The position numbers were made by a program, and so were the translations under genes. The notes beneath the pieces were generated by a model that saw only the letters and a list, made by a program, of their open reading frames with translations, made no database searches and had not been told where the DNA came from. Shown here one piece after another: positions 4,119 to 63,959 of a stretch of DNA of 64,000 bases (position 1 is its first letter; each line of letters starts with the position of its first letter). The DNA comes from Candidatus Moraniibacteriota bacterium (lineage in GTDB: Bacteria; Patescibacteriota; Minisyncoccia; Moranbacterales; UBA2206), in NCBI GenBank assembly GCA_049303905.1, contig JBAQNP010000020.1:78309-142308 (forward strand). Direction: 5' to 3'.

Positions 4119-4120
4119 TT

Positions 4121-34167: not shown

Positions 34168-34177
34168 CATAAGCAAA

Positions 34178-38372: not shown

Positions 38373-38376
38373 TTCC

Positions 38377-42556: not shown

Positions 42557-42581
42557 TATCTGTAGTCATCTAAATGACCCC

Positions 42582-42609
42582 TTGACAATTTTTTTGTATT
42601 TGCTATGCT
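42582..42609 (+). promoter_or_regulatory. Promoter of cassette copy 1 (TTGACA-16-TATGCT)
   Basis: Conserved with the copy-2 promoter at 57886 (TTGACA-17-TATACT). Followed by the conserved TTTATCNAAGTAAAGTG. Confidence 0.5.
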
Positions 42610-42645
42610 TTATCTAAGTAAAGTGATTTATTAAAGTAAAGCAAT

Positions 42646-42972: not shown

Positions 42973-43079
42973 ATTTTTAGTTATATATCTTCACAAACCT
43001 CTTTCTGGGATAGGAAGAGGTTTTTTAAATTTGGACCTCTTAATATTAGTACATTAAAAATTAAATAGAGGAGAAGAAA

Positions 43080-43934
43080 ATGAAAAAAAATCTGACTTTG
43101 GGAATTCCTTCTGGTTCACTTTTTGATTCCACAGTAGCCTTGCTTCGAAAAGTAGGAATCGAAGTGGTGGTTAACGGGCGCAATTTTATGGCGGAAATTA
43201 GAGGAAGCGATATTTTTTCTCGCGCAATAATTATGCGACCGAATGATCTGCCTCTAGCGCTCAAAAACGGAATTGTTGACGGCATCATCACGGGGCTTGA
43301 TATGTGTCTCGAAAGTGGTTTAGGAAAAAAGCTTTGTATAATAGTAGAGCTTAACTTTTCCAAAAAATCTAAAGTGCCGGCTCGAGTGGTAGTTTTCTGT
43401 CGAGAAAGTGATTTAGATGAAATAGTTGATTCCGGAGAAATCTTAGTTTCATCAGAATATATGGAATTGGCGAAAACTATTTTCAAAAAATCGCAGATAA
43501 TTTTCTCTACTGGTTCGACTGAAATCAAAGTCGCTATTGCGGAATTTGGTTTTCGATACGGCGTTGGCGTGGTCGAAAGTGGAAAGAGTCTTAAGGACAA
43601 CAATCTCAAGATTGTGAAAGTTATCCTGACCACTCCGGTAATTTTCGCTGTAAGAAAAGAAAACCTGGAATTTCAAATCTTCGGCCAAATGCTCAAGGGT
43701 GCGTTGGAAGCCGAGATTTATCAGTTGGTAAAATTCAACGCGGATTCAAAGGACAAGGATCAGTTGATTGAAATTTTGCCAGCTATGGAATCGCCAACTA
43801 TTAGCAATCTTGCTGATGGCATGATTGCAATCGAGACGGTTATTGCTAAAGAAGCAATCACCGATTCGATCATAGCAATTAGGAAAAATGGCGGCAGAAA
43901 TATTCTCGTACAAAACATTAACATCTCCGTGTAA
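43080..43934 (+). CDS. hisG: ATP phosphoribosyltransferase, long form (HisG), copy 1
   Basis: Full-length match to long-form HisG: N-terminal LTLGIPSGSLFDSTVALLRKVGIEV, PRPP loop GVVESGKSL, C-terminal regulatory domain ILPAMESPTISNLADG…GGRNILVQNI. Confidence 0.7.
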   Translation: MKKNLTLGIPSGSLFDSTVALLRKVGIEVVVNGRNFMAEIRGSDIFSRAIIMRPNDLPLALKNGIVDGIITGLDMCLESGLGKKLCIIVELNFSKKSKVPARVVVFCRESDLDEIVDSGEILVSSEYMELAKTIFKKSQIIFSTGSTEIKVAIAEFGFRYGVGVVESGKSLKDNNLKIVKVILTTPVIFAVRKENLEFQIFGQMLKGALEAEIYQLVKFNADSKDKDQLIEILPAMESPTISNLADGMIAIETVIAKEAITDSIIAIRKNGGRNILVQNINISV

Positions 43935-43940
43935 GAAATA

Positions 43941-43980
43941 AGGGCGTGATGAATATCATTCATCCGCCCTTTCTAATTTT
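43941..43980 (+). terminator. Rho-independent terminator (conserved in both cassette copies)
   Basis: GGGCG-TGATGAAT-ATC-ATTCATC-CGCCC followed by TTTCTAATTTTT. Confidence 0.65.
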
Positions 43981-44698
43981 TCTTAGATAAAACCAATAGC
44001 CATTTATTTATAATTTTTAATGCCTCTTTATGATTCATGATTTCATTGTGTCCTGTTAAAACAATTTTAAAATCTAATTTGCTAATAATATTTAGCGCTC
44101 TTAAAAATTGTTTTTTATCTGAAGAATGACAATTAGCATAAATTTCGCCATTATATAATAAATCTCCAGATATTAAAATTTTATATTCAGGTTCATAGTA
44201 TATGCAAGAATCTTTTGAATGACCACCAAGGTGCATTATCTTGAAATTATAATCAAACCATCGTATCGATTTTGTTTTAATTGGTATAAAATCTGGAATA
44301 ATAAGATTAAAGTTATCACATACTTGTTTCACCTTCCTATTTATTATTTTATTTAATAAGACTGGGTTAAAATTTTCTTTTTTTAAATATTGTAAGCACC
44401 AATTTTTTTGATCATATATGTTTTTTTTGATAACTTCTGGAATAAGATATTCATTTTTTTTAAAATCTGAAATACCGCCGATATGATCAAAGTGAGAATG
44501 GGTTAAGGCAACTAGGAAATTTTCAATACCCAATTTATTTAGAAATTTTTTTAAAGAAAACAAACCTAATCCGGTATCAAAAATCAAGCAATTATTATTT
44601 TTTTTAAACAAATAAATATTGCAGCTTTCAAAATTCCAAGGCTCGCTAATTTGAAATATGTTTTTTGAGATTTTTTTTAATATAAATTTTTTATTCAT
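43973..44698 (-). CDS. Metallo-beta-lactamase-fold hydrolase
   Basis: HxHxDH motif ALTHSHFDHIGG, plus downstream H (HLGGH) and D (SGDLL). Very AT-rich relative to its neighbours. Confidence 0.7.
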   Translation of the reverse strand: MNKKFILKKISKNIFQISEPWNFESCNIYLFKKNNNCLIFDTGLGLFSLKKFLNKLGIENFLVALTHSHFDHIGGISDFKKNEYLIPEVIKKNIYDQKNWCLQYLKKENFNPVLLNKIINRKVKQVCDNFNLIIPDFIPIKTKSIRWFDYNFKIMHLGGHSKDSCIYYEPEYKILISGDLLYNGEIYANCHSSDKKQFLRALNIISKLDFKIVLTGHNEIMNHKEALKIINKWLLVLSKKN

Positions 44699-45548: not shown

Positions 45549-45627
45549 AAAAAAACAGCCCTTGAGGCCGTCTGATAAAGTTTAATGATTTTTCTAAAGT
45601 TTTTAAACGCTAACAAACAACCTCAAT
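45549..45627. promoter_or_regulatory. Conserved ~80-nt motif, copy 2
   Basis: AAAAAAAACAGCCC…GTCTGATAAAGTTTAAT…TTTTAAACGCTAACAAACAACCTCAA, 79 nt upstream of the minus-strand ORF 44781-45470. Confidence 0.4.
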
Positions 45628-46321: not shown

Positions 46322-46362
46322 GGGGTGGATCGTACAAGTTACGGTCCACCCCTTTTTTATTT
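46322..46362 (+). terminator. Strong rho-independent terminator
   Basis: GGGGTGGATCGTA-CAAGT-TACGGTCCACCCC followed by TTTTTTATTTG. Confidence 0.7.
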
Positions 46363-46414
46363 GAAATTATTTCGTTATTATGCTAGGTTTAGTAATAAAG
46401 AATAAGAGATTTTT

Positions 46415-47401
46415 ATGAACAAAATTTTTCCAAAAAAATTGAAAAAGGGGGATTTGGTGCAAGTTATTGCGCCAGCTTCTTCGCTGGGGATTATTTCGCA
46501 GGAAAACAGAAAGATTGCCAATCAACGATTTCAAAAAATGGGTTTGAAATTGATTTTTGGAAAGCACGTGGAGGAAATTGATGAATTTAATTCTTCTAGT
46601 GTCGAATCAAGAATTGAAGATTTACATGAAGCTTTTCGCAATCCCAAAGTCAAAGCTGTTCTTTGCGTGATTGGCGGATTTAGTAGCAATCAGCTTTTGA
46701 AATATATCGATTGGAATTTGATCAAAAAAAATCCTAAGATTTTTTGCGGATATTCGGATATCACAGCACTTGGCAATACTATCTTTGCCAAAACAGGGCT
46801 AGTGAATTATTCCGGTCCGGCTTATGCTACTTTTGGTGACAAGAAAGGTTTTGATTATACATTGGAATATTTTGAAAAATGTTTATTCTCAAAAAAATCT
46901 TTCGAGGTTGTGTCATCTCTAAAGTGGAGTGATGACAAATATTATATCAATCAAAAGGATCGAACTTTTTTCAAAAACGAAGGACCTTTGATTGTTAATG
47001 AAGGCAAAGCAGAAGGCACATTGCTTGGCGGTAATCTCTGCACGCTTAATTTGCTTCAGGGGACTGAGTTTTTTCCTGATATCTCAAATTCAGTTTTGTT
47101 TATCGAAGATGATTATATGTCTAATGCAGTTGAGTTTGATCGGAATCTTCAATCGCTTTTGCATTTGCCAAATTTTGACAAAGTACGAGGAATTGTTTTT
47201 GGGCGTTTTCAAAGAACGAGCGAAATTACCAACGAAAAACTTTTTAAAATTATTAAAACCAAAAAAGAATTAGAAAAAATTCCAATTATCATCAACGCTG
47301 ATTTTGGACACACTCAATCAATGATAACTTTTCCAATCGGCGGAACGGCAAAATTTTCGGCAAAAGATGGGAAAATAAAATTGGAAATTGTAAAACACTA
47401 A
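46415..47401 (+). CDS. S66-family LD-carboxypeptidase (LdcA/MccF-like)
   Basis: Nucleophile motif GYSDITAL, N-terminal GDLVQVIAPAS, C-terminal His/Glu region. Confidence 0.7.
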   Translation: MNKIFPKKLKKGDLVQVIAPASSLGIISQENRKIANQRFQKMGLKLIFGKHVEEIDEFNSSSVESRIEDLHEAFRNPKVKAVLCVIGGFSSNQLLKYIDWNLIKKNPKIFCGYSDITALGNTIFAKTGLVNYSGPAYATFGDKKGFDYTLEYFEKCLFSKKSFEVVSSLKWSDDKYYINQKDRTFFKNEGPLIVNEGKAEGTLLGGNLCTLNLLQGTEFFPDISNSVLFIEDDYMSNAVEFDRNLQSLLHLPNFDKVRGIVFGRFQRTSEITNEKLFKIIKTKKELEKIPIIINADFGHTQSMITFPIGGTAKFSAKDGKIKLEIVKH

Positions 47402-50210: not shown

Positions 50211-51101
50211 ATGATTTATAAAAACATTCTAGAGCAAATTGGAAATACGCCGATGGTAAGAATTAATAATTTCAATTTAAAAAAAGGCGTGGAAATTTTT
50301 GCCAAATTAGAAGGTGCTAACCCCGGAGGGAGTATCAAAGATCGGATCGCTCTGAAAATGATTCAAGAAGCCAAAAAAAATGGTGAGCTCACAAAAAAGA
50401 AAACCATTATCGAACCAACCTCTGGCAACACCGGCATCGGCTTGGCTATGATTGGAACGGTCTTGGGTTATGCCGTAGAAATTGTGATGAGCTCAGCGGT
50501 TTCCATTGAAAGACGAAAAATGATTGAGGCATATGGTGCCAAGGTAATTTTGACTGATGGAAATTTAGGAACAGACGGCGCAATTTTGGTAGCGCGAGAA
50601 CTGGTCAAAAAAAATCCAAAAAAATATTTTATGCCGGATCAATTTTCTAATAAGAATAATAAGCTGGCGCATTATGAAGCGACCGCCCAGGAGATTTGGC
50701 GGGATATGGAGGGTAAGATAGATTATTTTGTTTCTTCCATTGGAACTTCCGGAACGATTATGGGTGTGAGCGAATATTTGAAAAAGCTAAATCCAAAAAT
50801 AAAAATAGTTTGTGCTTATCCAGAAAAAAATCATTATATTCAAGGACTCAAGAATATGGAAGAGGCGATTGTGCCCAAACTTTATGACAAAAACAAAATA
50901 GATGAATTCGTGACGATAGAAAGTGAGAAAGCTTTTGAAATGACAAGGCAACTAGCTAGGCGTGAAGGGCTTTTTGTGGGAATGTCTAGCGGAGCCACAA
51001 TGCTTGCCACTCTTGAAATTGCCCAAAAAATAGACAAAGGCCGAATCGCGATTATCTTCCCCGATCGAGGCGAAAAATATCTCAGTACGGAATTATTTTG
51101 A
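50211..51101 (+). CDS. cysK: Cysteine synthase / O-acetylserine sulfhydrylase family
   Basis: PLP lysine context GGSIKDR; TSGNTGIGLA glycine loop. Confidence 0.75.
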   Translation: MIYKNILEQIGNTPMVRINNFNLKKGVEIFAKLEGANPGGSIKDRIALKMIQEAKKNGELTKKKTIIEPTSGNTGIGLAMIGTVLGYAVEIVMSSAVSIERRKMIEAYGAKVILTDGNLGTDGAILVARELVKKNPKKYFMPDQFSNKNNKLAHYEATAQEIWRDMEGKIDYFVSSIGTSGTIMGVSEYLKKLNPKIKIVCAYPEKNHYIQGLKNMEEAIVPKLYDKNKIDEFVTIESEKAFEMTRQLARREGLFVGMSSGATMLATLEIAQKIDKGRIAIIFPDRGEKYLSTELF

Positions 51102-51217
51102 TTTTATGGCTAAATTAGGCAACTAAACGAAGTCCCGCCTTCGTTTTTTGCTTTATTTAAGGCAAATATGTTTTGTGCCTTTGACAAAAAGGCTTTTTTG
51201 ATATATAATAATAGGTT

Positions 51218-52309
51218 ATGAAAATAAATACGGGTGACAATAAAAAAGTTTTCTTTTTCTACCTAGTTTTGGTAGATTTTATTATCGCAATGCAAATTGC
51301 GGCGGTTTCTTTTTTGCAGGTAAAATCAATTGATTTCTTTTTTTCTTTTGTCATTTCCTTTTTAGTTTTCTTGGCTTTCTCTGAAATTTTTGAAAGTAGC
51401 AGGAAGATAAAAAGTATCATGCGTCCAGGAATGATCTTTATGATCTTAGGAAGTTTGATTAATTTTTTTCTAAGTGACGCAAGTTTTTTTGCTCTAGGCA
51501 GAGTTATGTCTGGCTTAGGCGCCGGTATGGTAATGGCAAGTCAAATTGGAATGATTTGGCATGATAATTCGGAAAGAATGAAAAACTTTTTTTTGTTTTT
51601 TCTGTTTTCTTTTATCTCTGGTTTGATTTTTAGTCCCGCGCTAGTTAGCTTTCTATCCGGCCCAGCGCTAGGAGAAATGAAAGTGGTTTTTGTTTTAGGC
51701 ATAGCATTGCCCGGCTTGGTGATGGCAGGAAATATGAATGGAATTTTCACGATGGTTTCAAATACGGCGTCGGATGCAACGAAAGCTTTTTTTGATATAA
51801 GTGGAGATGATAATCTCGGTGCTGGTGCAAAAAAAATAGCCGTTACTACGGCAAGAAGAATTGTCTATGTCTTTTTTGATTATTGGTTTTCTATCGCTTG
51901 TGCCGCACTAGTTGGTCTTTTGAATTTTTGGGGATTGTCATTTTGGAAAGTAGTTTTTATCACTTGGGTTTTCGATTTTGCTATTGCTTTTGGTTTTATG
52001 ACTATAAGTGAAAAAAGCGGGCAGGATATAACTTTAGGAGAATCATTTCGCCGAGCAGCTGAAGCTATAAAAGTGAACTCAAAAATAATGGGACATTTCG
52101 CTTTTGCATATTTGAATATTAAGGCGATAATTTGGGATGGCCCAGAACAGGTTGTGATTTTTTTCAAAAAAGAAATCGGCGGAACAAAAAAAATGACCCT
52201 GATTCTTGTTGGCTTAACTTTCATCCAAGGATTTTTTTGGGCTTGGATTTATAGTCTTGGATATGAAAGCGTATCTGAGCTTATTGAAAGAATGTTGCAA
52301 ATAAGCTAA
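51218..52309 (+). CDS. Polytopic membrane protein (~10 TM helices)
   Basis: 363 aa, hydrophobic throughout; no transporter signature recognised. Confidence 0.4.
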   Translation: MKINTGDNKKVFFFYLVLVDFIIAMQIAAVSFLQVKSIDFFFSFVISFLVFLAFSEIFESSRKIKSIMRPGMIFMILGSLINFFLSDASFFALGRVMSGLGAGMVMASQIGMIWHDNSERMKNFFLFFLFSFISGLIFSPALVSFLSGPALGEMKVVFVLGIALPGLVMAGNMNGIFTMVSNTASDATKAFFDISGDDNLGAGAKKIAVTTARRIVYVFFDYWFSIACAALVGLLNFWGLSFWKVVFITWVFDFAIAFGFMTISEKSGQDITLGESFRRAAEAIKVNSKIMGHFAFAYLNIKAIIWDGPEQVVIFFKKEIGGTKKMTLILVGLTFIQGFFWAWIYSLGYESVSELIERMLQIS

Positions 52310-52334: not shown

Positions 52335-53636
52335 ATGAATATATTATTTATCTCTAAGGACTTATCCGGAGCTGATCTGGCTTATCGGTTGAAAAAGGAA
52401 GGGCATAGCGTCCGTCTTTTTATTGAAGATAAAACCCAAAATCATAACTTCGAGGGTTTGGTGGAAAAAACTAAGGACTGGAAAAATGATCTTGAATGGG
52501 TCGGCAAAAACGGACTAATTGTTTTTGATAGTTCTGGCTATGGAGATATTCAAGATAACCTAAGAAAAAAAGGTTATTTGGTAGTTGGCGGAAACAAGTT
52601 TGCTGATCGATTGGAACATGACAGGCAATATGGACAAAAAATAATTTCAGTATGCGGAATGAAAATTATTCCGTCAATTAATTTTAATTGCGCTAAATCC
52701 GCCATTAAATTTGTGGAAGAAAATGAAGGTCCGTGGGTAGTCAAACAAAATGGCCATATCAATACTAGCTTCAACTATGTCGGACAACTCAAAAATGGCA
52801 AAGATGTTATTTCAGTTTTGAAAAATTATAACAGAAATAATAAGAAGGAATGTGTTTCAATTGATTTGCAAAAGAAAATTGATGGAGTTGAGATTGGTGT
52901 AGCAAGGTATTTTAATGGCAAGGACTGGGTTGGACCGATTGAAATTAATTTGGAGCACAAGAGTCTTTTTAACGGTGATTTAGGACCGAAAACATACGAG
53001 ATGGGAACTTTGCTTTGGTATGAAGAAAATGAAAAAAATAAACTTTTTCAAAAAACTTTAGCAAAAATGAAGCCATATTTGAAGAGTATAAAATTCAAAG
53101 GAGACATTGATATTAATTGTATCGTAACAAAAGATGAAATTTTTCCCTTAGAGATAACCCCACGTTTTGGCTGGCCGTCAACCCATCTTCATGAGGAAAT
53201 TCATCTGTCTCCATGGGGAGAATTTTTAAAAGCAATCGCCGAAGGCAAGCCCTATGATTTGAAATACAAAAAAGGATATGGAATTGTGGTCTTGCTTTCT
53301 ACGCCTCCTTTTCCATATGTAGTCAGAACAAAGAAATATTATCCGGAAGGAATGGATATTTTTTTCAAAAAAGAATTATCCAAAGAAGAAATAGAACGAA
53401 TTCATTTGGAGGAAGTTTCTCTGAGAAAAAACACAAAAGATCAGCTTTATATTTCAAGCAAAACAGGTTTTGCGCTTCATGTTACGGGAATGGGAAAAAC
53501 AGTAGTGGAAGCCAGAAAAAATACTTATGATCTTGTTCGAAATGTTGTCATTCCGAAAATGTTTTATCGAACAGATATTGGATTGAAGTTTGTCGAAAGA
53601 GATCAGAAAAAACTTGAAGAATGGGGATTGATATAG
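52335..53636 (+). CDS. ATP-grasp-like protein, distantly PurD-like
   Basis: 433 aa, the size and domain order of PurD-like ATP-grasp enzymes; similarity is weak. Its last 55 nt are duplicated at 57784-57838. Confidence 0.4.
   Translation: MNILFISKDLSGADLAYRLKKEGHSVRLFIEDKTQNHNFEGLVEKTKDWKNDLEWVGKNGLIVFDSSGYGDIQDNLRKKGYLVVGGNKFADRLEHDRQYGQKIISVCGMKIIPSINFNCAKSAIKFVEENEGPWVVKQNGHINTSFNYVGQLKNGKDVISVLKNYNRNNKKECVSIDLQKKIDGVEIGVARYFNGKDWVGPIEINLEHKSLFNGDLGPKTYEMGTLLWYEENEKNKLFQKTLAKMKPYLKSIKFKGDIDINCIVTKDEIFPLEITPRFGWPSTHLHEEIHLSPWGEFLKAIAEGKPYDLKYKKGYGIVVLLSTPPFPYVVRTKKYYPEGMDIFFKKELSKEEIERIHLEEVSLRKNTKDQLYISSKTGFALHVTGMGKTVVEARKNTYDLVRNVVIPKMFYRTDIGLKFVERDQKKLEEWGLI
53582..53636. repeat. Direct repeat, copy 1 (3' end of the ATP-grasp gene)
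   Basis: ATTGAAGTTTGTCGAAAGAGATCAGAAAAAACTTGAAGAATGGGGATTGATATAG; 51/55 identical to 57784-57838 (all differences A>G). Confidence 0.6.
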
Positions 53637-53698
53637 AAAATATAATAAGCTATGTTTGACTAAAATTGGTGTTTATAACAATCTATAGCTGATTAAAA

Positions 53699-54607
53699 AT
53701 GGAAAAATTAATTCTTGATTTATTAAAAATAGAATCATACTCAGGCAATGAAAAGAAAGTTGCTGATTTTATTATTTCAAAATTAAAAGGATTTGAAATT
53801 GAATGCCAACTTGTAGCAAAAAATCGTTTCAATATAATTGCTAAAAAAGGGAATTCAAAAATTTGGTTATTGGCTCATATGGATACTGTCAAGAGTTGGA
53901 TCGAGCCTAGGATTGAAGGAAATAAGATTTATGGACGAGGAGCGGTTGATAACAAGGGCAATATAGCTTCTGCTATTGAAGTTGGAAAACGACTTGAGAA
54001 TATAAATCTATGTTTTACTGTTGGCGAGGAGTACGATTTCATTGGTGCAAAATCAGCTAGGAAAATTATTAAAAATGATCTGGTTGTGGTTATGGAGCCG
54101 ACTAATTTTGAAATTTATTCTGGTCAAAGAGGAATGATTGAATTTGAGATTTCAACAAAAGGAAAACAAGGTCATAGTGCCTATGCTAATAGTAAAAATA
54201 ATGCAATTCAAAAAATAGCAAATATTATAGTTAGTTTTGAAAGAAAAAAATGGACAGCTTTTAATGTTGGGAAAATTGAAGGTGGTATAGCGGCCAATAT
54301 AGTTGCTCCAGTAGCGAATGCAATTATATCTGTGAGACCTGAAACGACAAGAGAATACAATTCAATTCTTCGGGATATAAAAAATTTCAAAATATTAAAC
54401 AATATTCCTCCTGTTGTAAATCAGAAAATAAAAGGGAAAATAAAAAAAGCATTTACCGAGATGGCTTTCTTTGAAAATAGTATTGTTTTTGGAGCGGGAG
54501 ATTTTAAACAGGCTCATAGTGACAAGGAATATATACTCAGAAAAGATCTCAAATTAGCCCCAGAAAAAATCATCAAGTTGCTTGAAAAAATTTCTAAAAA
54601 TGCTTAG
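53699..54607 (+). CDS. M20-family metallopeptidase (ArgE/DapE-like, short)
   Basis: Metal ligands HMDTV and GRGAVDNKG. Confidence 0.6.
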   Translation: MEKLILDLLKIESYSGNEKKVADFIISKLKGFEIECQLVAKNRFNIIAKKGNSKIWLLAHMDTVKSWIEPRIEGNKIYGRGAVDNKGNIASAIEVGKRLENINLCFTVGEEYDFIGAKSARKIIKNDLVVVMEPTNFEIYSGQRGMIEFEISTKGKQGHSAYANSKNNAIQKIANIIVSFERKKWTAFNVGKIEGGIAANIVAPVANAIISVRPETTREYNSILRDIKNFKILNNIPPVVNQKIKGKIKKAFTEMAFFENSIVFGAGDFKQAHSDKEYILRKDLKLAPEKIIKLLEKISKNA

Positions 54608-54698
54608 GAGTTTTATTTAAAGATAGTTGTGTCGTTGTTGACATTTATGGCAATTGTAGTAATATTAAATTTAGTAATTAAAATATAATTTAGTTAAT

Positions 54699-55994
54699 TT
54701 GATAATGTTTAAAAGTATGAAATCAATAAAAAATACAAAAATTGCTGTTATTGGTATGGGTTACGTTGGGTTGCCTTTGGCGATTGCCTTTGGAAAGAAA
54801 GTTGAAACTATTGGATTTGATATTAATAAAAAAAGAATACAAGAATTGAAAAATTACGAAGATAGGTCGAAAGAAATGAATAAAGATGAGATTAAAAACG
54901 CAAAGAAGCTTTGTTTCTCGGATAATATTTTAGATTTAAAACAATGCAATTTTTTTATCGTTGCAGTTCCTACTCCAGTTGATCAGTTTAAAATACCAGA
55001 TTTTAGCCCCTTGATAAAAGCGAGTGCTTCCATAGCGAAAGTATTGAAAAATGGAGATGTTGTTGTCTATGAATCGACGGTGTATCCAGGAGCAACTGAA
55101 GAAATTTGTGTTCCTGTTTTAGAGAAAGAATCAAAGTTAGTTTATAATAAGGATTTTTTTGTTGGGTATAGTCCAGAAAGAATTAGTCCTGCGGATAATA
55201 ATAACCTACAGGATATTGTAAAAGTTACTTCAGGATCTAATATAGAGATTGGTAAATATGTGGATAGTGTTTATAGGGAGATTATAACAGCGGGAACTTT
55301 TTTAGTTGAGGATATGCGAGTCGCAGAGGCTTGTAAGGTTATTGAAAATACGCAAAGAGACATCAATATAGCATTTATGAATGAAATTTCTATTGCTATG
55401 GAAAAAATGGGAATAGAAACGCGAGATGTCTTGGCGGCCATGAAAACAAAATGGAATGCGCTCTCTTTTGTTCCTGGGCTTGTTGGTGGGCATTGCATTG
55501 GAGTTGATCCTTATTATTTAATTCATAAGGCTTATGAATTTGGATATAGTATGGAAGTTTCAAGAAATGCAAGAATCGTGAACGATGGAATGCCAAAATT
55601 TATTGCTGAAAAAGTGGCAATTAAAATATGCGAGAATAAAATAAATCCAGCAAAGACTAGAGTGCTTATAATGGGAGCTTCGTTTAAGGAAAATTGTGCA
55701 GATATTAGAAATGCCCGTCCATTTGATATTGCAAAAGAGCTAAAGAAATATGGAATGAAAGTTGATTTTTTTGATCCTATTGTTGATGCAGAAGAAGTTA
55801 AAAGGGTGGAAAAAGTTGTTCTTACTAAAAATCCAGCCCTTGGTTATTATGATGTTGTAATTTTAGCGGTGGCGCATAAAAAATTTATAGATATGGGAGT
55901 TAAAAAAATTAGAAATTTTGGTAAAAAAGACAAAAACATTCTTTTCGATATCAAGGCGATTTTCGGAAAAAATGATTCGGATTTAAGATTGTAA
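54699..55994 (+). CDS. Nucleotide-sugar dehydrogenase (UDP-glucose / UDP-ManNAc dehydrogenase family)
   Basis: Rossmann GMGYVGLPLA; catalytic-Cys region GGHCIGVDP. Confidence 0.8.
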   Translation: MIMFKSMKSIKNTKIAVIGMGYVGLPLAIAFGKKVETIGFDINKKRIQELKNYEDRSKEMNKDEIKNAKKLCFSDNILDLKQCNFFIVAVPTPVDQFKIPDFSPLIKASASIAKVLKNGDVVVYESTVYPGATEEICVPVLEKESKLVYNKDFFVGYSPERISPADNNNLQDIVKVTSGSNIEIGKYVDSVYREIITAGTFLVEDMRVAEACKVIENTQRDINIAFMNEISIAMEKMGIETRDVLAAMKTKWNALSFVPGLVGGHCIGVDPYYLIHKAYEFGYSMEVSRNARIVNDGMPKFIAEKVAIKICENKINPAKTRVLIMGASFKENCADIRNARPFDIAKELKKYGMKVDFFDPIVDAEEVKRVEKVVLTKNPALGYYDVVILAVAHKKFIDMGVKKIRNFGKKDKNILFDIKAIFGKNDSDLRL

Positions 55995-56006
55995 TTTTTG
56001 TAATAT

Positions 56007-57242
56007 ATGATAAAATTTCCCATCATCATAAAGAAAGATATCGGATTGGATAATTATAATAAATGGCAAAAATATTATAATAGAAAAGAAAATGATCATG
56101 AATGTTTTAAGGAGGAAGGACTCTGGAGAAGAAGTCAGTGCGTTATAAATAAAGAACATTCAGATTGGTTAAATCAGGATGATAAAAGAAGAAGAATTGT
56201 GCACTATGAGCATGAGTTTGGAGTTTCAAAAAAAGAAAAATTTTTTAATTTTATACTTAAAAAAACATACATTTGGATTAGTTTATGCTTGCCAGCCGAA
56301 GAAATAGATGAATACTATTTGAATATCATAAAGAAGCTTGAAAATAATAAGTTCTGGATAAGGAATTATACCAGAAAAGATCTCTATAGTTGCGGGGATC
56401 TTTTTTTATCGATTAAAAGAAAAAAGAATACAAAAGAAGATATAGAACAAAAAAGATTTTTTCCTGAAAATTATGAAATTTTGGAGATAAATTTTTATTC
56501 TAAAAATAATTATAAGGATGAAAAATTTATTTCAAAGCCATGGCTGGTCTTGAAAAATGGCGTAAGGAAAAAGGATGTTAGGGGTAATCCTTTTATTACA
56601 GATGATCCATCGATTATATTGAAATATCTTCCAGCTCAAATAGAGTTGGGTGGCGGAGCGTCAATTGAAGCGGGTATTTACCCCCTTCATTTTTTACATG
56701 AAATTTATAGTGTTTGTGATAGAGAAAAGAATTTTATTTTTAATTATAAAAAAGACAATATCGTAAGAGAAATTATCACAAATCCGAGAAAATTGATTGA
56801 TAAAATTAGTTTAATGCACAAAAAAATTATCAATACTAATCCTAATCGTTTTTACAAAACATTAAAATTTTTGTACGATAAAAATTTTATAGTTGGACCA
56901 ATAATAACCAATAATTTTGATGGACTCATAAGACAAGTTGGTTTGAATGAATTGTATGTGAGGAAATATAGTGACAATATTTTTCCCAATGTAGATTTTC
57001 ATAAGGACGCAAAAAGTTTGATTGTCGTTGGTTCTCATGCTGATAGAAGGCGTGTTCAAAAAACTGCTAGAGAAAAAGGACTTAAGGTTATATATGTTGA
57101 TCCGGAGGGTTATTGGAATAAAAAAGGTTTTTTTGTTCCTTATCCACTGGAATCTCCACAGAATAACGATATAATAATAAAAAGTGAGGCAGGTGATGTT
57201 TTTTGCATATTGAAAAAGATTATAGGAAAATTAGTTTGTTAA
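56007..57242 (+). CDS. Fusion protein: unknown N-terminal domain + SIR2-like (sirtuin-fold) C-terminal domain lacking the Zn module
   Basis: The C-terminal half has sirtuin motifs LGGGASIEAGI (GAGIS-like), ITNNFDGLIRQ (TQNIDGL-like) and LIVVGSHADRR (VVGTSL-like). No CxxC…CxxC zinc ribbon lies between them. Confidence 0.45.
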   Translation: MIKFPIIIKKDIGLDNYNKWQKYYNRKENDHECFKEEGLWRRSQCVINKEHSDWLNQDDKRRRIVHYEHEFGVSKKEKFFNFILKKTYIWISLCLPAEEIDEYYLNIIKKLENNKFWIRNYTRKDLYSCGDLFLSIKRKKNTKEDIEQKRFFPENYEILEINFYSKNNYKDEKFISKPWLVLKNGVRKKDVRGNPFITDDPSIILKYLPAQIELGGGASIEAGIYPLHFLHEIYSVCDREKNFIFNYKKDNIVREIITNPRKLIDKISLMHKKIINTNPNRFYKTLKFLYDKNFIVGPIITNNFDGLIRQVGLNELYVRKYSDNIFPNVDFHKDAKSLIVVGSHADRRRVQKTAREKGLKVIYVDPEGYWNKKGFFVPYPLESPQNNDIIIKSEAGDVFCILKKIIGKLVC

Positions 57243-57341
57243 ACTAAAATAAAAAATTTATATTGCTTAGAGCAACAAATTATGTTGCCCTTTTTTTGTG
57301 TTTTATGCTACAATAAAATCACTAAAAGCTAAGATAAAAAT

Positions 57342-57818
57342 ATGGCGGAGAATATTTATGTTTCACTGGATGAAGCGAGGGAGGAAATTAAGAAACGATG
57401 GAATGATGTGGAACTCCGAAAAAAAGTGGAAGAAGAGTTGGAGGATAATTTTATGCCAGAATTTAAGGATAATCCTCGGGCAGTTCTTTTTCGTCAAATA
57501 TGTCCGGCAGACAATGGCTTTGAATTCTTCTTTTATTCCGGGAAATATATAAAGGCAGAACCTTTAATATTGGAATATCATGATGATATGTTTGTTTCTT
57601 TTAATGAAGAGAAAAAGGGGCTTGGCCGCGTAAGGGTAAAATTAGATGATGGATCTCCTGCAATGATAGATATAATGAATTTTCATGAAAATGAAAAAAA
57701 GAAGCTAGGCGAATGTGCTTTAAAGACAGGTGAAAAATTAGTTGATTTTCATCATAATCTTTTTGATTTATTGAATTATAAAATTGAAGTTTGTCGAAAG
57801 GGATCAGGAAAAACTTGA
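57342..57818 (+). CDS. Hypothetical protein (158 aa)
   Basis: Its last 12 codons lie in the duplicated 55-bp repeat, read in a different frame from the ATP-grasp gene. Confidence 0.35.
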   Translation: MAENIYVSLDEAREEIKKRWNDVELRKKVEEELEDNFMPEFKDNPRAVLFRQICPADNGFEFFFYSGKYIKAEPLILEYHDDMFVSFNEEKKGLGRVRVKLDDGSPAMIDIMNFHENEKKKLGECALKTGEKLVDFHHNLFDLLNYKIEVCRKGSGKT

Positions 57819-57838
57819 AGAGTGGGGGTTGATATAGA
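57784..57838. repeat. Direct repeat, copy 2
   Basis: ATTGAAGTTTGTCGAAAGGGATCAGGAAAAACTTGAAGAGTGGGGGTTGATATAG. Confidence 0.6.
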
Positions 57839-57885
57839 TTAAAGGGAGATTAAAGGGGTCGGTACCTCTTTAGTTGTTTTTTGTC

Positions 57886-57914
57886 TTGACAATATTTTTT
57901 ATGTTTGCTATACT
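57886..57914 (+). promoter_or_regulatory. Promoter of cassette copy 2 (TTGACA-17-TATACT)
   Basis: Consensus -35 and -10 with a 17-nt spacer. Confidence 0.55.
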
Positions 57915-57940
57915 TTATCAAAGTAAAGTGGTATAAAACG

Positions 57941-58267
57941 ATGAAAAAGTTAAATGATAATAAAACTGAAGATTTAATGCAAGCTATTTTGGCGTTGGAA
58001 AGCAAAAAAGAAGCCAAGATGTTTTTGCGTGACCTTTTGACGGAAAAGGAAATTTTGGAATTGGGTAATCGCTGGAAAGCGGTGCAAATGTTAGACCAGA
58101 AAAAAACTTATTCTGAAATCGAAAAAGAAACTGGCCTTAGTTCAACCACAGTGGCGCGAATCTCCAAATGGTTTCAAGAAGGCACAGGTGGATACGGCTT
58201 AATACTAAACAGAATTTCCAAAAATCATCACAAAACCTCTTCTAGTTCTAGAAAGCGGTTGATTTAG
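57941..58267 (+). CDS. TrpR-like (YerC/YecD family) DNA-binding protein, copy 2
   Basis: About 90% identical to 42646-42972. The ORF-track start at 57905 is a TTG; the ATG at 57941 matches the paralog. Confidence 0.7.
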   Translation: MKKLNDNKTEDLMQAILALESKKEAKMFLRDLLTEKEILELGNRWKAVQMLDQKKTYSEIEKETGLSSTTVARISKWFQEGTGGYGLILNRISKNHHKTSSSSRKRLI

Positions 58268-58371
58268 ATTTTTAGTTATTTATCTTCACAAACCTCTTTC
58301 TGGGATAGGAAGAGGTTTTTTTTATGCCTCTTAATATTGGTACATTAAAAATTAAATGTAAGGAGAAGAAA

Positions 58372-58773
58372 ATGAAAATCAACAAATCAATGATTAACAG
58401 TGAAATTTTGAACAAGGTAAGTTTCGGCAGAGCCATTCATCGGGATGGAACTAAGGCGCCGGACTTGATTGATGTGATTTTGCAAAATCATCTCAACGGA
58501 CAAGTGCTCTATGGTGCTTCTATGAACCAGGAAAATTTCGCAGAAACATTGGAAATTGGTTTTGTTGTTCTTTATAGCAAATCCAGAAAGACCCGCTGGT
58601 TCAAAGGAGAAACAAGCGGAGACAAGCTTCAAGTCGTTAATATTTTCTTAAATTGCAATAACGATCAATTATTGATCCAAGTTATTCCAATTGGAGCAGG
58701 CGTGTGTCACGAAAAAGATGAAAATGGCATTTCAAAACCAACATGCTTCAGCAAATTGTTGCTGGAAGTATAA
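58372..58773 (+). CDS. hisI: Phosphoribosyl-AMP cyclohydrolase (HisI)
   Basis: SRKTRWFKGETSGDKLQVVNIFLNCNNDQLLIQVIPIGAGVCH matches the HisI core. The start is set at the ATG preceded by AAGGAGAAGAAA (track start 58324). Confidence 0.7.
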   Translation: MKINKSMINSEILNKVSFGRAIHRDGTKAPDLIDVILQNHLNGQVLYGASMNQENFAETLEIGFVVLYSKSRKTRWFKGETSGDKLQVVNIFLNCNNDQLLIQVIPIGAGVCHEKDENGISKPTCFSKLLLEV

Positions 58774-58800
58774 ACTAAAAAAACAAAAGGAGAAAAAGAA

Positions 58801-59655
58801 ATGAAAAAAAATTTGATTTTGGGAATTCCTTCTGGTTCACTTTTTGATTCTACGGTGGCTTTGCTTCGAAAAGTAGGAATTGAAGTGGTGGTTAATGGGC
58901 GCAATTTTATGGCAGAAATTAGAGGAAGTGATATTTTTTCTCGCGCGATAATTATGAGACCTAATGATCTTCCTCTGGCGCTCAAAAACGGAATTGTTGA
59001 CGGCATCATCACGGGACTTGATATGTGCCTAGAAAGTGGCTTGGAAAAAGAGCTTTGTATAATGGTAGAGCTTAACTTTTCCAAAAAATCCAAAGTGCCG
59101 GCTCGAGTCGTGGTTTTCTGCCGAGAAAATGATTGTGATGAAATAGTTGATTCAGGAGAAATCTTAGTTTCATCAGAATATATGGAATTGGCGAGAAATA
59201 TTTTCAAAAAATCGAAAATAGTTTTCTCTACTGGCTCGACTGAAATCAAAGTCGCTATTGAGGAATTTGGTTTCCGATACGGCGTTGGCGTGGTCGAAAG
59301 TGGAAAGAGCCTTAAGGACAATAATCTCAAGATTGTGAAAGTTATCCTGACAACCCCGGTGATTTTTGCTGTGAGAAAAGAAAGTCTGGAATTTGAAATT
59401 TTCGGCCAAATGCTCAAGGGGGCGCTGGAAGCGGAGATGTATCAATTGGTGAAATTCAATGCAGATTCAAAAGACAAGGATCGGCTGATTGATATTTTGC
59501 CTGCTATGGAATCACCAACCATCAGCAATCTTGCTGATGGCATGATCGCAATCGAGACTGTTATTACTAAAGAAAAAATCACTGATTCGATTATAGCAAT
59601 CAAGAAATCGGGAGGCAGAAATATTCTAGTACAAAACTTGAATATTTCTCTGTAA
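58801..59655 (+). CDS. hisG: ATP phosphoribosyltransferase, long form (HisG), copy 2
   Basis: About 90% identical to 43080-43934. Confidence 0.7.
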   Translation: MKKNLILGIPSGSLFDSTVALLRKVGIEVVVNGRNFMAEIRGSDIFSRAIIMRPNDLPLALKNGIVDGIITGLDMCLESGLEKELCIMVELNFSKKSKVPARVVVFCRENDCDEIVDSGEILVSSEYMELARNIFKKSKIVFSTGSTEIKVAIEEFGFRYGVGVVESGKSLKDNNLKIVKVILTTPVIFAVRKESLEFEIFGQMLKGALEAEMYQLVKFNADSKDKDRLIDILPAMESPTISNLADGMIAIETVITKEKITDSIIAIKKSGGRNILVQNLNISL

Positions 59656-59661
59656 AAGACA

Positions 59662-59698
59662 AAGGGCGTGATGGTATCATTCATCCGCCCTTTTAATA
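59662..59698 (+). terminator. Rho-independent terminator (paralog of 43941-43980)
   Basis: AAGGGCG-TGATGGTATCATTCATC-CGCCCTTTT. Confidence 0.65.
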
Positions 59699-59753
59699 TT
59701 TGAATTTATTCTTACATTATGCTAGATTTAGTAGGAAATAAGCTAATATTTCT

Positions 59754-60545
59754 ATGAAAAAATACTTATTATTTTTCAAAAACTCTATTTCCGAAGCGTT
59801 GATATATCGCTCGCATATTTTTATGCTTATTATTTCCCAAGCAATTTCGCTGTTTGTTTTTATTTTTCTCTGGAAAGCCATTTATGCGGAGGGAAATCAA
59901 ATTGGGGGATATTCACTGAGCGGACTTATTAATTATTATATTCTTTCGGCAATTATTTCTTTTGTAATTCAAGGCGTGGATGTCGCTTGGAGAGTTGGCG
60001 ATGAAATTAGACTCGGAAATATTACCAACTTTATCCTAAAGCCAATAAATTATTTTTGGTCAACGCTTTGGATTGTGGCGGGAAAGTCTTTCTTAAATCT
60101 GCTTATTTCTTTTATTATTGTGGTGCCAATAATTTTATTCAGTACTAACTTTTTTGGTGAAGGTTTGGATTTTACTAAGATTATTTTTTTTATTTTTTCA
60201 ATTTTTTTAGCTTTTATCATTTTTGTTTTATTTTTCTATATAGTCGGGCTAGCCACTTTTTGGCTGGGTGAAGTTAGGGGCTTTAATTTTCTGGTGCGAA
60301 TGATTATGTTTTTTTTGGCAGGGAATATTGTGCCGTTAGATCTACTGCCAAAAATAATTTCCAATATTAATAATTTTCTGCCGTTTAGATTTATTACTTG
60401 GTTTCCTATTGCTATTTGGAGCGGAAAGCTGGAGTTGAATTTTTCGATTTTCATTCCGAGTTTAATTTGGATTTTGATATTGGGATTTTTGGCTAATTTT
60501 ATTTTTAAAAAAGGTTTAGAACAATATGAAGGACAAGGCGCTTAA
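59754..60545 (+). CDS. ABC-2-type transporter permease
   Basis: Six hydrophobic helices; first of a tandem permease pair. Confidence 0.55.
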   Translation: MKKYLLFFKNSISEALIYRSHIFMLIISQAISLFVFIFLWKAIYAEGNQIGGYSLSGLINYYILSAIISFVIQGVDVAWRVGDEIRLGNITNFILKPINYFWSTLWIVAGKSFLNLLISFIIVVPIILFSTNFFGEGLDFTKIIFFIFSIFLAFIIFVLFFYIVGLATFWLGEVRGFNFLVRMIMFFLAGNIVPLDLLPKIISNINNFLPFRFITWFPIAIWSGKLELNFSIFIPSLIWILILGFLANFIFKKGLEQYEGQGA

Positions 60546-62337: not shown

Positions 62338-62593
62338 TAAAATAGGTATTTTTGACTATTTTACTTGTATGATTTGTAAATAATATTGAATCCGAGTTCA
62401 AGGCTGTCGGTATCCAAGAAAGAAATTTGGAGGAGATGGGATGGAGGATGTTGATATGAGAAAAAAAGATTTTTTGAACATGAGCTTACTTAGAATTTTG
62501 AACTTGCTTTTTTATAAAATTCGGATTAAATTAGACATAGAAGATTGAGGGGGTTTTAATTAAAAAACGCTCATTTTAAAAAGGAGAAATGTC

Positions 62594-62779
62594 ATGACGA
62601 ATACACAGCTCTTTGTTATTTCGAAAGTCATTGAATGGTGCAATAATAATCTTGAAAAAATGAAAGGAGAAGGCAAAACACAGAAAGAAATAGTTTCTGC
62701 TTGCACGGATTCTATCTCTCAATATGAAGTTATTCACCCGAGCGTCGTTCAGCAGTATGTTGGCGCTTGCATGGCTTAA
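62594..62779 (+). CDS. Small Cys-containing protein (61 aa)
   Basis: Strong RBS AAAAGGAGAAATGTC; no signal peptide. Confidence 0.3.
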   Translation: MTNTQLFVISKVIEWCNNNLEKMKGEGKTQKEIVSACTDSISQYEVIHPSVVQQYVGACMA

Positions 62780-62799
62780 TGTTCTTTTTTGTTTCTTGC

Positions 62800-62877
62800 G
62801 GGCGCGTAGTTCTAATTGGCTAGAACATTGGACTCCAAATCCAATAGTTGGGGGTTCGAGTCCCTCCGCGCCTGCCA
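62800..62877 (+). tRNA. tRNA-Trp (anticodon CCA), second divergent copy, CCA encoded
   Basis: Acceptor GGGCGCG/CGCGCCT, anticodon arm TTGGA-CTCCAAA-TCCAA, T-loop TTCGAGT, G73, 3' CCA. Confidence 0.7.
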
Positions 62878-62912
62878 AACCCGTTTTTAGATAAAAACGG
62901 GTTTTATTTATT
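62878..62912 (+). terminator. Rho-independent terminator
   Basis: AAACCCGTTTTT-AGAT-AAAAACGGGTTT followed by TATTT. Confidence 0.5.
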
Positions 62913-62975
62913 GAAAATTTTTTGACAACATAAAACCTCGACAATCAATCTTTAATATGGTAATCTAAAATTAGA

Positions 62976-63959
62976 ATGGATGAAAATAATTATCAAAAAA
63001 CTTACGAAAAAAAGGTTGGCACAGCCAGATTAGACATAAAAAAAGCTGTTGCTGGTCAAAAAGTAAATTGTCGCTTAATGTATAAAGCGGGTTTTTATGG
63101 TGTTGATGATAGCGGAAGCTTAAAAATACTTTTTAGATTAGTTTCTGATTTTGAAGAATTTCAATTTACTAATCCTGCTGCTGATAACTTTGTAAAAATA
63201 TCATCTAGCAATAAAGATGTAAAAATTCGAGTTGAATCAAGATCAAGTGGAGCGTTAGGTAAAGCTTATATTCGACCATGGAGTCGTGGGTTTACTTTGC
63301 ATTTCGCTGAAGCATTTTTAAAAGAAAATGACGAAATATATATTGATTTTAGTAATTGGAAGATACAAACATTCTGTGAAAAAACGTTTGAGTTTAAGAT
63401 TCTTGTTGATTCATTTGCTACTGGAAAATATATTGAAATTGAAAAATCTCCAGAAATTGAAATTGTGCCAGACAAACCATCCCAACTAAAAATTATTGCT
63501 CCAACTCAAGTTAAAATAAATGCACCTTTTAAGGTTTTAATAAAAATCGAAGATCAAAATGGTAATCCTTGCCGTTATCAAAATGGAATATTTAATTTAG
63601 AAAAAAATTCTAAAATCAATGGGCTTCTTGCGAAGGCTAAATTTACAAATGGGAAAGCCATACTGAAATTAATGATTGCCGAAGAGGGGACTTATTTTAT
63701 AAAGGCAAATTTTGGAAATATCAGTGGAAATTCAAATCCACTAATTGGAATTAACAATGCGAAATTAAATTATTATTGGGCTGATCTTCATGCTCAATCG
63801 GAAGAAACAGTTGGAACTAACGATGTGGTTGATTATTTTAATTTCGCTAAAAATTATGCTTTTATTGATATAGCTTCACATCAGGCTAATGATTTTCAAG
63901 TTGCTAATGAGATATGGAAAAAAATTAATAAAACTAGGACTTACGCGTTTGCCAAATAA
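62976..63959 (+). CDS. Hypothetical protein (327 aa)
   Basis: No confident motif; a C-terminal WADLH segment was noted but not interpreted. Confidence 0.35.
   Translation: MDENNYQKTYEKKVGTARLDIKKAVAGQKVNCRLMYKAGFYGVDDSGSLKILFRLVSDFEEFQFTNPAADNFVKISSSNKDVKIRVESRSSGALGKAYIRPWSRGFTLHFAEAFLKENDEIYIDFSNWKIQTFCEKTFEFKILVDSFATGKYIEIEKSPEIEIVPDKPSQLKIIAPTQVKINAPFKVLIKIEDQNGNPCRYQNGIFNLEKNSKINGLLAKAKFTNGKAILKLMIAEEGTYFIKANFGNISGNSNPLIGINNAKLNYYWADLHAQSEETVGTNDVVDYFNFAKNYAFIDIASHQANDFQVANEIWKKINKTRTYAFAK

Follow-up and report, generated by a model that had tools for sequence, protein, structure and literature searches.

The window analyzed here, a 64,000-nucleotide stretch of contig JBAQNP010000020.1 from a Candidatus Moraniibacteriota genome (GCA_049303905.1), carries an intact ATP-grasp/PurD-like gene at 52335-53636, assigned by the Pfam domains GARS_A and GARS_C and by PurD structures and referred to below as the type 1 allele. 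All features described lie on the forward strand. The final 55 nt of this gene, stop codon included, together with one further nucleotide form repeat copy A (53582-53637). Copy B (57783-57843), an orphan ATP-grasp 3′ fragment that retains the stop codon and 5 nt beyond it, lies at the far end of a 4.1-kb block (53637-57783). Within the block we find the M20 peptidase, nucleotide-sugar dehydrogenase, SIR2-like protein and hypothetical gene listed in the first-pass annotation. The peptidase module (53638-54637) was identified with Pfam. It is followed by a two-gene module (54638-57250) encoding a UDP-glucose/GDP-mannose-type nucleotide-sugar dehydrogenase and the 411-aa SIR2-like protein. The left edge of this module coincides with a TTGACA -35 hexamer. 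The SIR2 match is weak (Pfam E 0.11), and a search for a sequence relative in the PDB returned none. A terminator-like hairpin (57272-57297) follows the SIR2-like gene, and the block ends in the hypothetical ORF (57342-57818, 158 aa), designated hyp1.

Downstream of copy B lie a terminator-like hairpin and T-run (57848-57885, hairpin 57848-57875), seen in this context alone, and copy 2 of a TrpR(YerC)-hisI-hisG cassette (57885-59701), a promoter-to-end module whose left edge corresponds to those of copy 1 (42581) and of the cassette in a relative (L037, position 1228). Self-BLAST of the window places the two cassette copies at 88-89% identity. Copy B had been described as immediately upstream of this cassette; it does precede it, but the hairpin intervenes and the duplicated cassette DNA begins only at 57885.

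BLAST aligned 53582-53637 with 57783-57838 without gaps at 52 of 56 positions (E 1.8e-16, ~2e-16), and this was the sole such pair in its region in the window self-comparison. The alignment reproduces both positions of the 55-bp repeat first reported and the direction of its differences, as each of the four mismatches is an A in copy A and a G in copy B, and the longest run without a mismatch is 18 nt. We also confirmed that copy A is the 3′ end of the ATP-grasp ORF 52335-53636, and that copy B is read out of frame as the C-terminus (..KIEVCRKGSGKT*) of ORF 57342-57818. Three of the four differences are synonymous third-position changes that also occur in orphan fragments of other genomes, and therefore arose while the gene was coding; the remaining one, specific to copy B, is non-synonymous (K>E). 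The match between copy B and the orphan copies of other genomes runs 5 nt beyond the stop codon, which is not the case for its match to copy A.

The left edge of copy B falls inside a broken gene. Positions 57291-57791 are the beginning of a conserved operon encoding the hyp protein and a histidine kinase, and start with a 62-nt conserved segment (57291-57352) comprising the promoter, 5′ leader and start codon that is also present in L010, L041, L001, L029 and L038. The hyp1 protein is 265 aa long in L041 and 261 aa in L010, and at least 190 homologues are about 260 aa, compared with 158 aa here. The window tracks the intact hyp1 of L041 (93% nucleotide identity) as far as ATTGAAGTT and then changes to the ATP-grasp tail, which has the same 9-mer. 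This 9-bp microhomology (57783-57791) is common to hyp1 (..AAGATTGAAGTTGTTGAT.. in L041) and the ATP-grasp tail (..GGATTGAAGTTTGTCGAA..), and the hyp-derived part of the ORF extends to 57791 (codon 149 of about 261-265), after which it continues out of frame through copy B. The histidine kinase expected 3′ of hyp1 is absent from the window. Because copy B starts at a microhomology within a truncated conserved gene, its left edge is an illegitimate junction and not an att core. ORF 57342-57818 should be annotated as a truncated pseudogene and 57783-57838 as a gene remnant.

On this comparative evidence the enclosed block is a patchwork and not one unit, because the dehydrogenase/SIR2-like pair occurs separately in other genomes and the hyp1 stub is part of an operon that is conserved. 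The two-gene module is 90.8% identical to L038 (5440-8051) and is also found in L039 and L040; in all three it sits between a methyltransferase/85-aa gene and lytB. No relative examined has a counterpart of the M20 module 3′ of its ATP-grasp gene. Compared with L038, the window has its modules (dehydrogenase/SIR2-like module, hyp promoter, tail) in reverse cyclic order, an arrangement that no one event accounts for.

The comparison genomes, all of them metagenome assemblies, contain further ATP-grasp tails without a gene in front. In L038, a different, intact ATP-grasp gene and a DAP epimerase gene precede a 225-nt 3′ fragment, and L029 has a fragment of ~100 nt directly 3′ of a full-length hyp paralogue; together with the 55 nt of the window, these orphan tails are of unequal length. 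Over 60 bases, copy B has 1 difference from the L038 orphan and 3 from the L029 orphan, whereas copies A and B differ at 7. The three orphans differ from one another at 1-3 of 60 positions and all share AGG, GAG, GGG and a post-stop ATTAA. The two longer orphans match the body of the L010-type gene at 92% and the intact gene of the window at 81%, and they derive from an L010-type allele (55% amino acid identity to the window's protein), unlike the intact gene. We deduce the allele class of copy B from these matching orphans over just 47-60 nt, because no more than 47 nt of it are unambiguously ATP-grasp-derived. The reading of copy B as an ATP-grasp 3′ end that was duplicated and displaced holds. 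The interpretation of copy B as an integration scar does not: the first-pass annotation had named a paralogous ATP-grasp pseudogene fragment as the alternative source of the similarity, and the orphan lineage is such a source.

The whole locus is variable among relatives. Type 1 ATP-grasp proteins are 93% (L042) and 92% (L001) identical to that of the window, and identity falls to 71% for L043, 55% for L010 and 50% for L038. Overall, alleles differ at 7-53% of amino acids, while the flanks are 85-96% identical in nucleotide sequence. Against L001 and L042, homology stops at or just past the ATP-grasp stop codon. We counted seven different sequences 3′ of the ATP-grasp tail (window A, window B, L001/L030, L010, L029, L038 and L042). 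The stop codon is followed by adenosine deaminase, NUDIX, HAD and DHQ synthase genes in L010, by PPTase, adenylation, PCP and thioesterase genes in L001, and by aminoacyl-tRNA-synthetase paralogues in L042. L043 carries a short version of the site, with a methyltransferase and a NUDIX gene and then a small ORF and tRNA-Trp. Because relatives carry unrelated cargo directly after the stop codon between conserved flanks, the locus is a gene-exchange hot spot. On the upstream side, identity to L010 drops sharply at 51700, but this drop is not specific to the window lineage since it is absent against L043, where identity falls at ~52300, and against L042, in which the 3′ half of the membrane gene and the type 1 ATP-grasp gene are contiguous at 90% with other cargo downstream.

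Further remnants lie downstream of the cassette. At 62403-62443 is a second gene stub, a 41-nt piece (95%) of codons about 21-34 of an L029-type second hyp paralogue, hyp2. The canonical ATP-grasp terminator and post-stop sequence (..TGAACTTGCTTTTTTAT..) occur at 62499-62540 without a preceding gene; in L001 and L042 this sequence is found behind the intact genes, and in L029 behind the orphan. The intervening 62444-62498 may, with some uncertainty, be a decayed third ATP-grasp tail. Backbone DNA encoding a 61-aa small ORF and tRNA-Trp(CCA) follows (62594-62877, within 62496-62927), which in L029 comes directly after the ATP-grasp tail and terminator, and in L043 only 1.2 kb after the ATP-grasp gene.

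Together our results suggest, with high confidence, that copy B is the 3′ end left behind by a second ATP-grasp gene, which belonged to another allele class and was displaced by illegitimate recombination at a hot spot. We propose that whole ATP-grasp alleles, with the genes behind them, are exchanged between Moranbacteria strains at this site. A DNA stretch ending within hyp1 would have been joined to the last ~50 nt of an older ATP-grasp gene by illegitimate recombination across the 9-bp microhomology, destroying hyp1 and removing the older gene except for its tail. The intact gene and its trailing genes would now lie upstream of the old tail, so that the arrangement looks like a block between direct repeats. 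The recombination was probably homology-facilitated, and we give roughly even chances to the event having been an import of foreign DNA with its left side anchored by homology. Similar events appear to have been repeated, each shifting older gene ends downstream. Neither the corresponding donor arrangement (type 1 ATP-grasp, M20, dehydrogenase, SIR2-like, promoter and intact hyp1) nor the recipient arrangement before the event was found in the genomes compared.

Displacement of this kind has precedents. Orphan 3′ ends are left by "C-terminal displacement" in Rhs loci and in clusters of T6SS effector and immunity genes (Kirchberger et al. 2017, PMC5361080, where Jackson et al. 2009 is cited): an incoming module with its own copy of the gene lands upstream, the older 3′ end is moved downstream and orphaned, and repeated events build arrays, with homology-facilitated illegitimate recombination as the proposed mechanism (PMC5361080). 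The features that mark displacement, an orphan 3′ fragment downstream of an intact homologue of a different allele and an illegitimate, microhomology junction at one end, are both found in the window, although the difference in allele is only probable for copy B itself. In contrast to those systems, the window has a PurD-like ATP-grasp enzyme in place of a toxin and shows no evident immunity-gene logic, its orphan is 55 nt long and non-coding in its new frame, and the host is a CPR bacterium. Homology-facilitated illegitimate recombination is described in naturally transformable bacteria (de Vries & Wackernagel 2002; Prudhomme et al. 2002; Meier & Wackernagel 2003, as cited in PMC5361080; see also PMC3240628). 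The window resembles those cases in that one end is joined by a short microhomology, 9 bp here, and adjacent recipient DNA is lost; it differs in that uptake and the direction of transfer are deduced, and in that comparison with L010, L042 and L043 located no homologous anchor at the opposite end.

An internal deletion is a possible but less favored alternative. An ancestor would have carried two ATP-grasp loci in direct orientation on one chromosome, the first with the cargo and then the hyp1/kinase operon behind it, the second with the terminator and then the TrpR cassette. A deletion mediated by the microhomology, beginning at hyp1 codon 149 and stopping 55 nt short of the second gene's end, would have removed the DNA between them, with no foreign DNA involved in that step. 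This yields the identical junction and fits the missing kinase; L038, with an intact ATP-grasp gene and the remnant of another in tandem, and the segmental duplication of the TrpR/hisG cassette (88-89%) in this genome also speak for it. However, it needs two complete tandem ATP-grasp loci beforehand, an arrangement found in none of ~30 related loci, and an earlier insertion would still be required to make the two-locus state.

Flexible genomic islands, or replacement hot spots, lie between conserved genes, and integrative islands of the tRNA/tmRNA type duplicate the 3′ end of their target gene as attL/attR. As in the former, the left flank (the membrane protein and the 3′ end of the ATP-grasp gene) and the downstream backbone are conserved among related genomes while the cargo is wholly different; unlike them, the window has an anchor gene that is itself swapped between highly divergent alleles, and stubs of earlier occupants persist. 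The first-pass annotation favored the latter, namely an island integrated site-specifically into the ATP-grasp 3′ end, with the 55-mers as attL/attR and an integrase lost or acting in trans, which we now consider very improbable. As in integrative islands, direct repeats from a gene 3′ end enclose extra DNA next to an intact upstream gene. In relatives, moreover, many different cargos begin 0-50 nt past the ATP-grasp stop, and the tail is ~95% conserved between alleles that are only 55% identical elsewhere. The DNA 3′ of the intact gene is indeed extra relative to other genomes (1.2 kb of spacing in L043), but it is not a single unit and its parts are found separately in other genomes. It is slightly AT-richer, but the dip in GC is mild, with GC3 z-scores of -1.0 to -1.6 that lie inside the range of the window. 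Against site-specific integration, the right repeat meets a truncated conserved gene at a 9-bp microhomology, the 5′ extents of the orphans vary (55, about 100 and 225 nt) and leave no fixed crossover core, the longest exact run between copies A and B is 18 nt, and cargo starts are spread from stop+0 to about stop+47 with no single position. The earlier statement that no integrase is present holds for the enclosed DNA: Pfam, PHROG and PADLOC scans found no integrase or recombinase in any of the four ORFs, and a structure model of the hyp family (pLDDT 95) gave weak, Rossmann/HUP-like PDB matches and no recombinase fold. Nor did we find an empty site, as in none of the 24 ATP-grasp loci of relatives, nor in L037, is an ATP-grasp gene followed by the TrpR cassette. 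These observations largely refute integration into the gene 3′ end.

An assembly artefact, in which sequences from co-existing strains would have been fused at the conserved tail into a chimeric contig, is likewise highly unlikely: the source is a metagenome-assembled genome with a polymorphic locus, and contigs of relatives break nearby (three stop 200-300 nt upstream of hyp2), but the shared exact run of at most 18 nt and the 9-nt junction microhomology are too short for a k-mer join, and orphan tails also occur in assemblies made independently from other samples (L029/L034/L035 and L038).

More speculatively, the last 55-75 nt of the ATP-grasp gene, which are conserved, could be the fixed anchor of a Moranbacteria cassette-exchange locus, in which whole alleles (47-93% amino acid identity) and cargo are serially displaced and leave nested tails (225, 100 and 55 nt, and the gene-less terminator). 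We regard this as a long shot, and a so far unrecognized trans-acting system targeting the sequence just past the stop codon as less likely still. If true, the anchor would make this an Rhs/T6SS-like "displacement array" around a metabolic-looking enzyme, and would imply strong diversifying selection on the ATP-grasp enzyme and its cargo in CPR bacteria.

The displacement of copy B is ordinary in kind, and this CPR (Moranbacteria) genome offers a tidy example of it. Extra DNA enclosed by direct repeats of a gene 3′ end need not signal an integrase-driven island; the decisive tests are the edge of the repeat, here a microhomology in a broken gene, and comparison with relatives. To our knowledge, direct evidence of how CPR genomes exchange genes is sparse, and this locus provides a base-by-base record of illegitimate recombination and of allele and cargo turnover in an uncultured lineage of this group.

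We confirmed by self-BLAST of the window that the 3' end of an ATP-grasp gene is directly repeated over 55 bp, as the first-pass annotation had proposed: 53582-53637 (copy A) and 57783-57838 (copy B) align without gaps at 52 of 56 positions (E 1.8e-16), a match that excludes a chance origin of the pair. Copy A holds the final 55 nt of ORF 52335-53636 with its stop codon. The encoded ATP-grasp protein is PurD-like, with matches to Pfam GARS_A and GARS_C and, at E 1e-15, to PurD structures. Copy B lies in another reading frame and forms the end of ORF 57342-57818, also as proposed, and the four differences between the copies were borne out, each an A in copy A and a G in copy B. Read in the ATP-grasp frame, three are synonymous (AGA/AGG, GAA/GAG, GGA/GGG) and the fourth is a K-to-E substitution. 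Copy B with its terminator reads TTGATATAGATTAAAGGGAGATTAAAGGGGTC. As a candidate RNA element the tail had no Rfam match, its pattern was absent from the viral contigs searched, and exact-protein look-ups with the ATP-grasp protein, the truncated product of 57342-57818 and the SIR2-like protein of the window found no match. At NCBI the window's proteins belong to a "Candidatus Moraniibacteriota" genome assembled from a metagenome (MFZ2975652-60, locus tags WA055_03450-03490, on a contig of 142,368 nt).

Copy B begins inside a truncated gene. ORF 57342-57818 (158 aa) is a cut-down member of a CPR-wide family of ~260-aa proteins (hyp1; >190 homologues, 50-75% identity). Window 57290-57767 matches the 261-aa hyp1 form of L010 (Parcubacteria SO_2017_GW1_179, flanks 85-96% identical to the window in nucleotides) at 92.5% nucleotide identity, and the Logan contig L041, with hyp1 intact, carries the DNA of a 265-aa member of the same 90% cluster. 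The window tracks L041 hyp1 at 93% as far as ..TATAAAATTGAAGTT and then diverges; intact hyp1 reads on as GTTGATAAT, and the window reads TGTCGAAAGG, the ATP-grasp tail (..GGATTGAAGTTTGTCGAAAG..). The sequence common to both parents is exactly ATTGAAGTT (9 nt, 57783-57791), so hyp1 and ATP-grasp can each account for the initial 9 nt of copy B, and unambiguous ATP-grasp DNA is confined to 57792-57838. Such a junction is the signature of microhomology-mediated illegitimate recombination and not that of a recombinase core.

The truncated gene retains a conserved 62-nt promoter, leader and start, ATGGCGGAGAA (57291-57352), that drives hyp1 and then a histidine kinase in L010 and L041. The same promoter in L001 (18564-18624), L029 (4715-4775) and L038 (2765-2835) drives a short leader plus the kinase; the leader-like ORF ahead of the kinase reads MAEKKRKNRQMFSWMNPKL... 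This conserved promoter and start place 57291-57791 in the backbone, not the cargo.

A degenerate search of metagenome contigs for the ATP-grasp tail found L029, a JGI contig that bears an orphan tail, as do L034 and L035. In L029 a full-length hyp paralogue (hyp2; 270 aa, 35% amino acid identity to hyp1) is followed 5-10 nt later by ~100 nt of ATP-grasp 3' end without a gene body, then by the terminator that L001 and L042 have behind their intact gene, and finally by DNA 92% identical to window 62499-63934. In the Logan contig L038, an intact but strongly divergent ATP-grasp gene (50% amino acid identity) and a DAP-epimerase gene precede a 225-nt orphan fragment, 92% identical to the L010 gene and 81% to the window gene, with a terminator and the hyp/kinase promoter after it. 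Compared over the tail plus 5 nt (60 positions), copy B has 1 mismatch to the L038 orphan, 3 to the L029 orphan and 7 to copy A. The three orphans have AGG, GAG, GGG and a post-stop ATTAA in common, so three of the four A>G changes mark a lineage and date from a time when this DNA still encoded protein; copy B alone has the K>E change. The orphans begin at three different distances ahead of the stop (225, ~100 and 55 nt), the reverse of what a fixed att boundary would give. All three independent contigs with an L029-type hyp2 gene (L034 1-298, L035 1-231, L036 1-201) stop 200-300 nt upstream of it, suggesting an assembly-breaking repeat or strain polymorphism there.

Because a hyp gene adjoins an orphan tail in the window as it does in L029, we considered hyp as a novel recombinase and rejected the idea. 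The family is CPR-wide and has no domain matches, and no PDB entry matches its confident structural model (pLDDT 95, pTM 0.90) at E <= 1e-3; the model weakly resembles, at best, the Rossmann/HUP-like folds of class-I tRNA synthetases, pantothenate synthetase and ATP sulfurylase. Members (window 57342-57791; L010 18159-18944; L031 10001-12370) also occur as SET-domain fusions and as tandem triplets; triplets beside aminoacyl-tRNA-synthetase and kinase genes, with no ATP-grasp gene nearby, further disfavour a recombinase.

The genes behind the ATP-grasp stop are unrelated from one relative to the next. L010 carries genes for adenosine deaminase, two NUDIX proteins, a nucleotidyltransferase, a HAD protein and DHQ synthase; L001 (UBA12116, as is L030; ATP-grasp 92% identical in amino acids to the window's) carries PPTase, adenylation, PCP, thioesterase and amidotransferase genes; and the Logan contig L042 (ATP-grasp 93%) carries two AsxRS-like paralogues. 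L043 (GCA_030654225.1, left flank collinear with the window) has a methyltransferase and a NUDIX gene, then a small ORF and tRNA-Trp as at window 62496-62927, a placement that sets the window's extra DNA between the ATP-grasp stop and the small ORF at ~8.9 kb rather than 4.1 kb. Cargo starts at stop+0 in L010, stop+1 at copy A and stop+5 at copy B and in L038; in L001, L042 and L029 it starts at ~stop+47, past the canonical terminator. This spread marks a hot region rather than a single site. A fixed, Tn7/attTn7-like insertion point behind the stop was rejected on the same range of starts and the absence of transposition genes. The ATP-grasp gene itself is exchanged: pairwise ATP-grasp identity among these genomes is 47-93% in amino acids, against 85-96% in nucleotides for neighbouring genes. 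Its final 55-75 nt nevertheless keep ~95% identity when the window/L001/L042 type is compared with the L010 type. A second variable spot lies upstream, between cysK and a membrane-protein gene: the window (51100-51218) has no extra genes there, L010 (5788-8725) has four and L043 (4817-8878) has three AAA_14/DUF4143 genes.

The DNA between the repeats does not behave as the single 4.1-kb unit first proposed. The dehydrogenase and SIR2-like genes (54638-57250, left edge a TTGACA -35 hexamer) occur separately in the Logan contigs L038-L040 at 90.8% identity, flanked there by a methyltransferase/85-aa gene and lytB and with the histidine kinase upstream, and the block's right end, 57291-57791, is backbone. 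Only the M20 gene had no counterpart elsewhere. The block is thus a patchwork. Tandem duplication or circular permutation was rejected as the source of the module order, which is the reverse cyclic order of L038 and so fits no single such event. The noted lack of an integrase was upheld, with a recombinase domain in none of the four enclosed ORFs; as for the suggested GC discontinuity, the three cargo genes have low GC3 values (z -1.0 to -1.6) that stay inside the window's spread. No family matches the SIR2-like protein (56007-57242) significantly (SIR2 E 0.11, PDB HST2 E 0.96); in L038-L040 its gene is always paired with the dehydrogenase, and its N-terminal ~210 aa are unassigned.

Further duplicated elements lie in the window. 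The TrpR(YerC)-hisG cassette occurs at 42581-43981 and 57885-59701 (88-89% identity), the second copy with an additional hisI-like gene (58379-58777). Its left edge, at a -35 hexamer, is the same at 57885, at 42581 and at position 1228 of L037, where the context is different again; the cassette thus behaves like a module that runs from promoter to end. Near-identical promoter/leader repeats, TTTGAAATTATT..TATGCTAGATTTAGTAGGAAATA..ATG, stand at 46345-46423, 59684-59762, 40702-40777 and 45549-45626, with similar regions in L010 and L037, and conserved promoters of this sort may supply short homologies at module edges. A ~190-nt intergenic element (4110-4330 and 38361-38575, 72% identity), both copies beginning with an identical hairpin CTTTACTTTTTCTTTCCGCAAGAAAAAGTAA, has a predicted consensus structure of 43 pairs, 7 with compensatory double changes, 5 of these 7 being consecutive; with no credible Rfam match, it is a candidate unannotated structured RNA.

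Farther downstream, a 41-nt piece of an L029-type hyp2 gene (62403-62443, 95%) is followed by ~55 nt of scrambled sequence, which (62444-62498) reaches ~55% identity in a forced alignment and might be a decayed third tail. From 62499 the canonical ATP-grasp terminator, small ORF and tRNA-Trp follow as behind the L029 orphan, so an ATP-grasp 3' end once stood here too. This second tRNA-Trp(CCA) and its conserved 61-aa small ORF (62594-62877) are kept as a pair in L029 and L043; the window's first tRNA-Trp is at 34097-34168.

The junction, the truncation of hyp1 and the closeness of copy B to the L038 and L029 orphans are direct observations, and displacement is their best-supported account. A stretch comprising the present intact ATP-grasp gene and its trailing genes, ending in hyp1, would have been fused, at the 9-bp microhomology, with the terminal ~50 nt of an older L010-type ATP-grasp gene, the remainder of which would have been deleted. 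Similarly, displaced Rhs C-termini and T6SS effectors accumulate downstream as orphan 3' ends with immunity genes, and homology-facilitated illegitimate recombination is the mechanism proposed (PMC5361080; see also PMC3240628). We give roughly even chances that the new DNA came from outside by this route. Internal deletion, with two tandem loci as its endpoints, is a less probable source of the same junction. A further reading, of low probability, is that the conserved ATP-grasp tail anchors a serial displacement array. The left anchor was not mappable: identity drops sharply at 51700 against L010, but L043 and L042 are collinear with the window across this point, and we withdrew it as the left crossover of an import.

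An assembly chimera is unlikely, because the longest exact run common to copies A and B is 18 nt, the junction overlap is 9 nt and orphan tails recur across independent assemblies. The first-pass reading of a site-specific island in the ATP-grasp 3' end, prompted by the repeats, did not hold, given the microhomology edge in truncated hyp1, the variable orphan and cargo starts, the patchwork block and the lack of an empty site (ATP-grasp directly before the TrpR cassette) in any of 24 ATP-grasp loci or L037. We conclude that copy B is a gene remnant, produced when illegitimate recombination struck a hot spot of gene exchange; events of this kind are known, and this one is neatly documented in a CPR genome.
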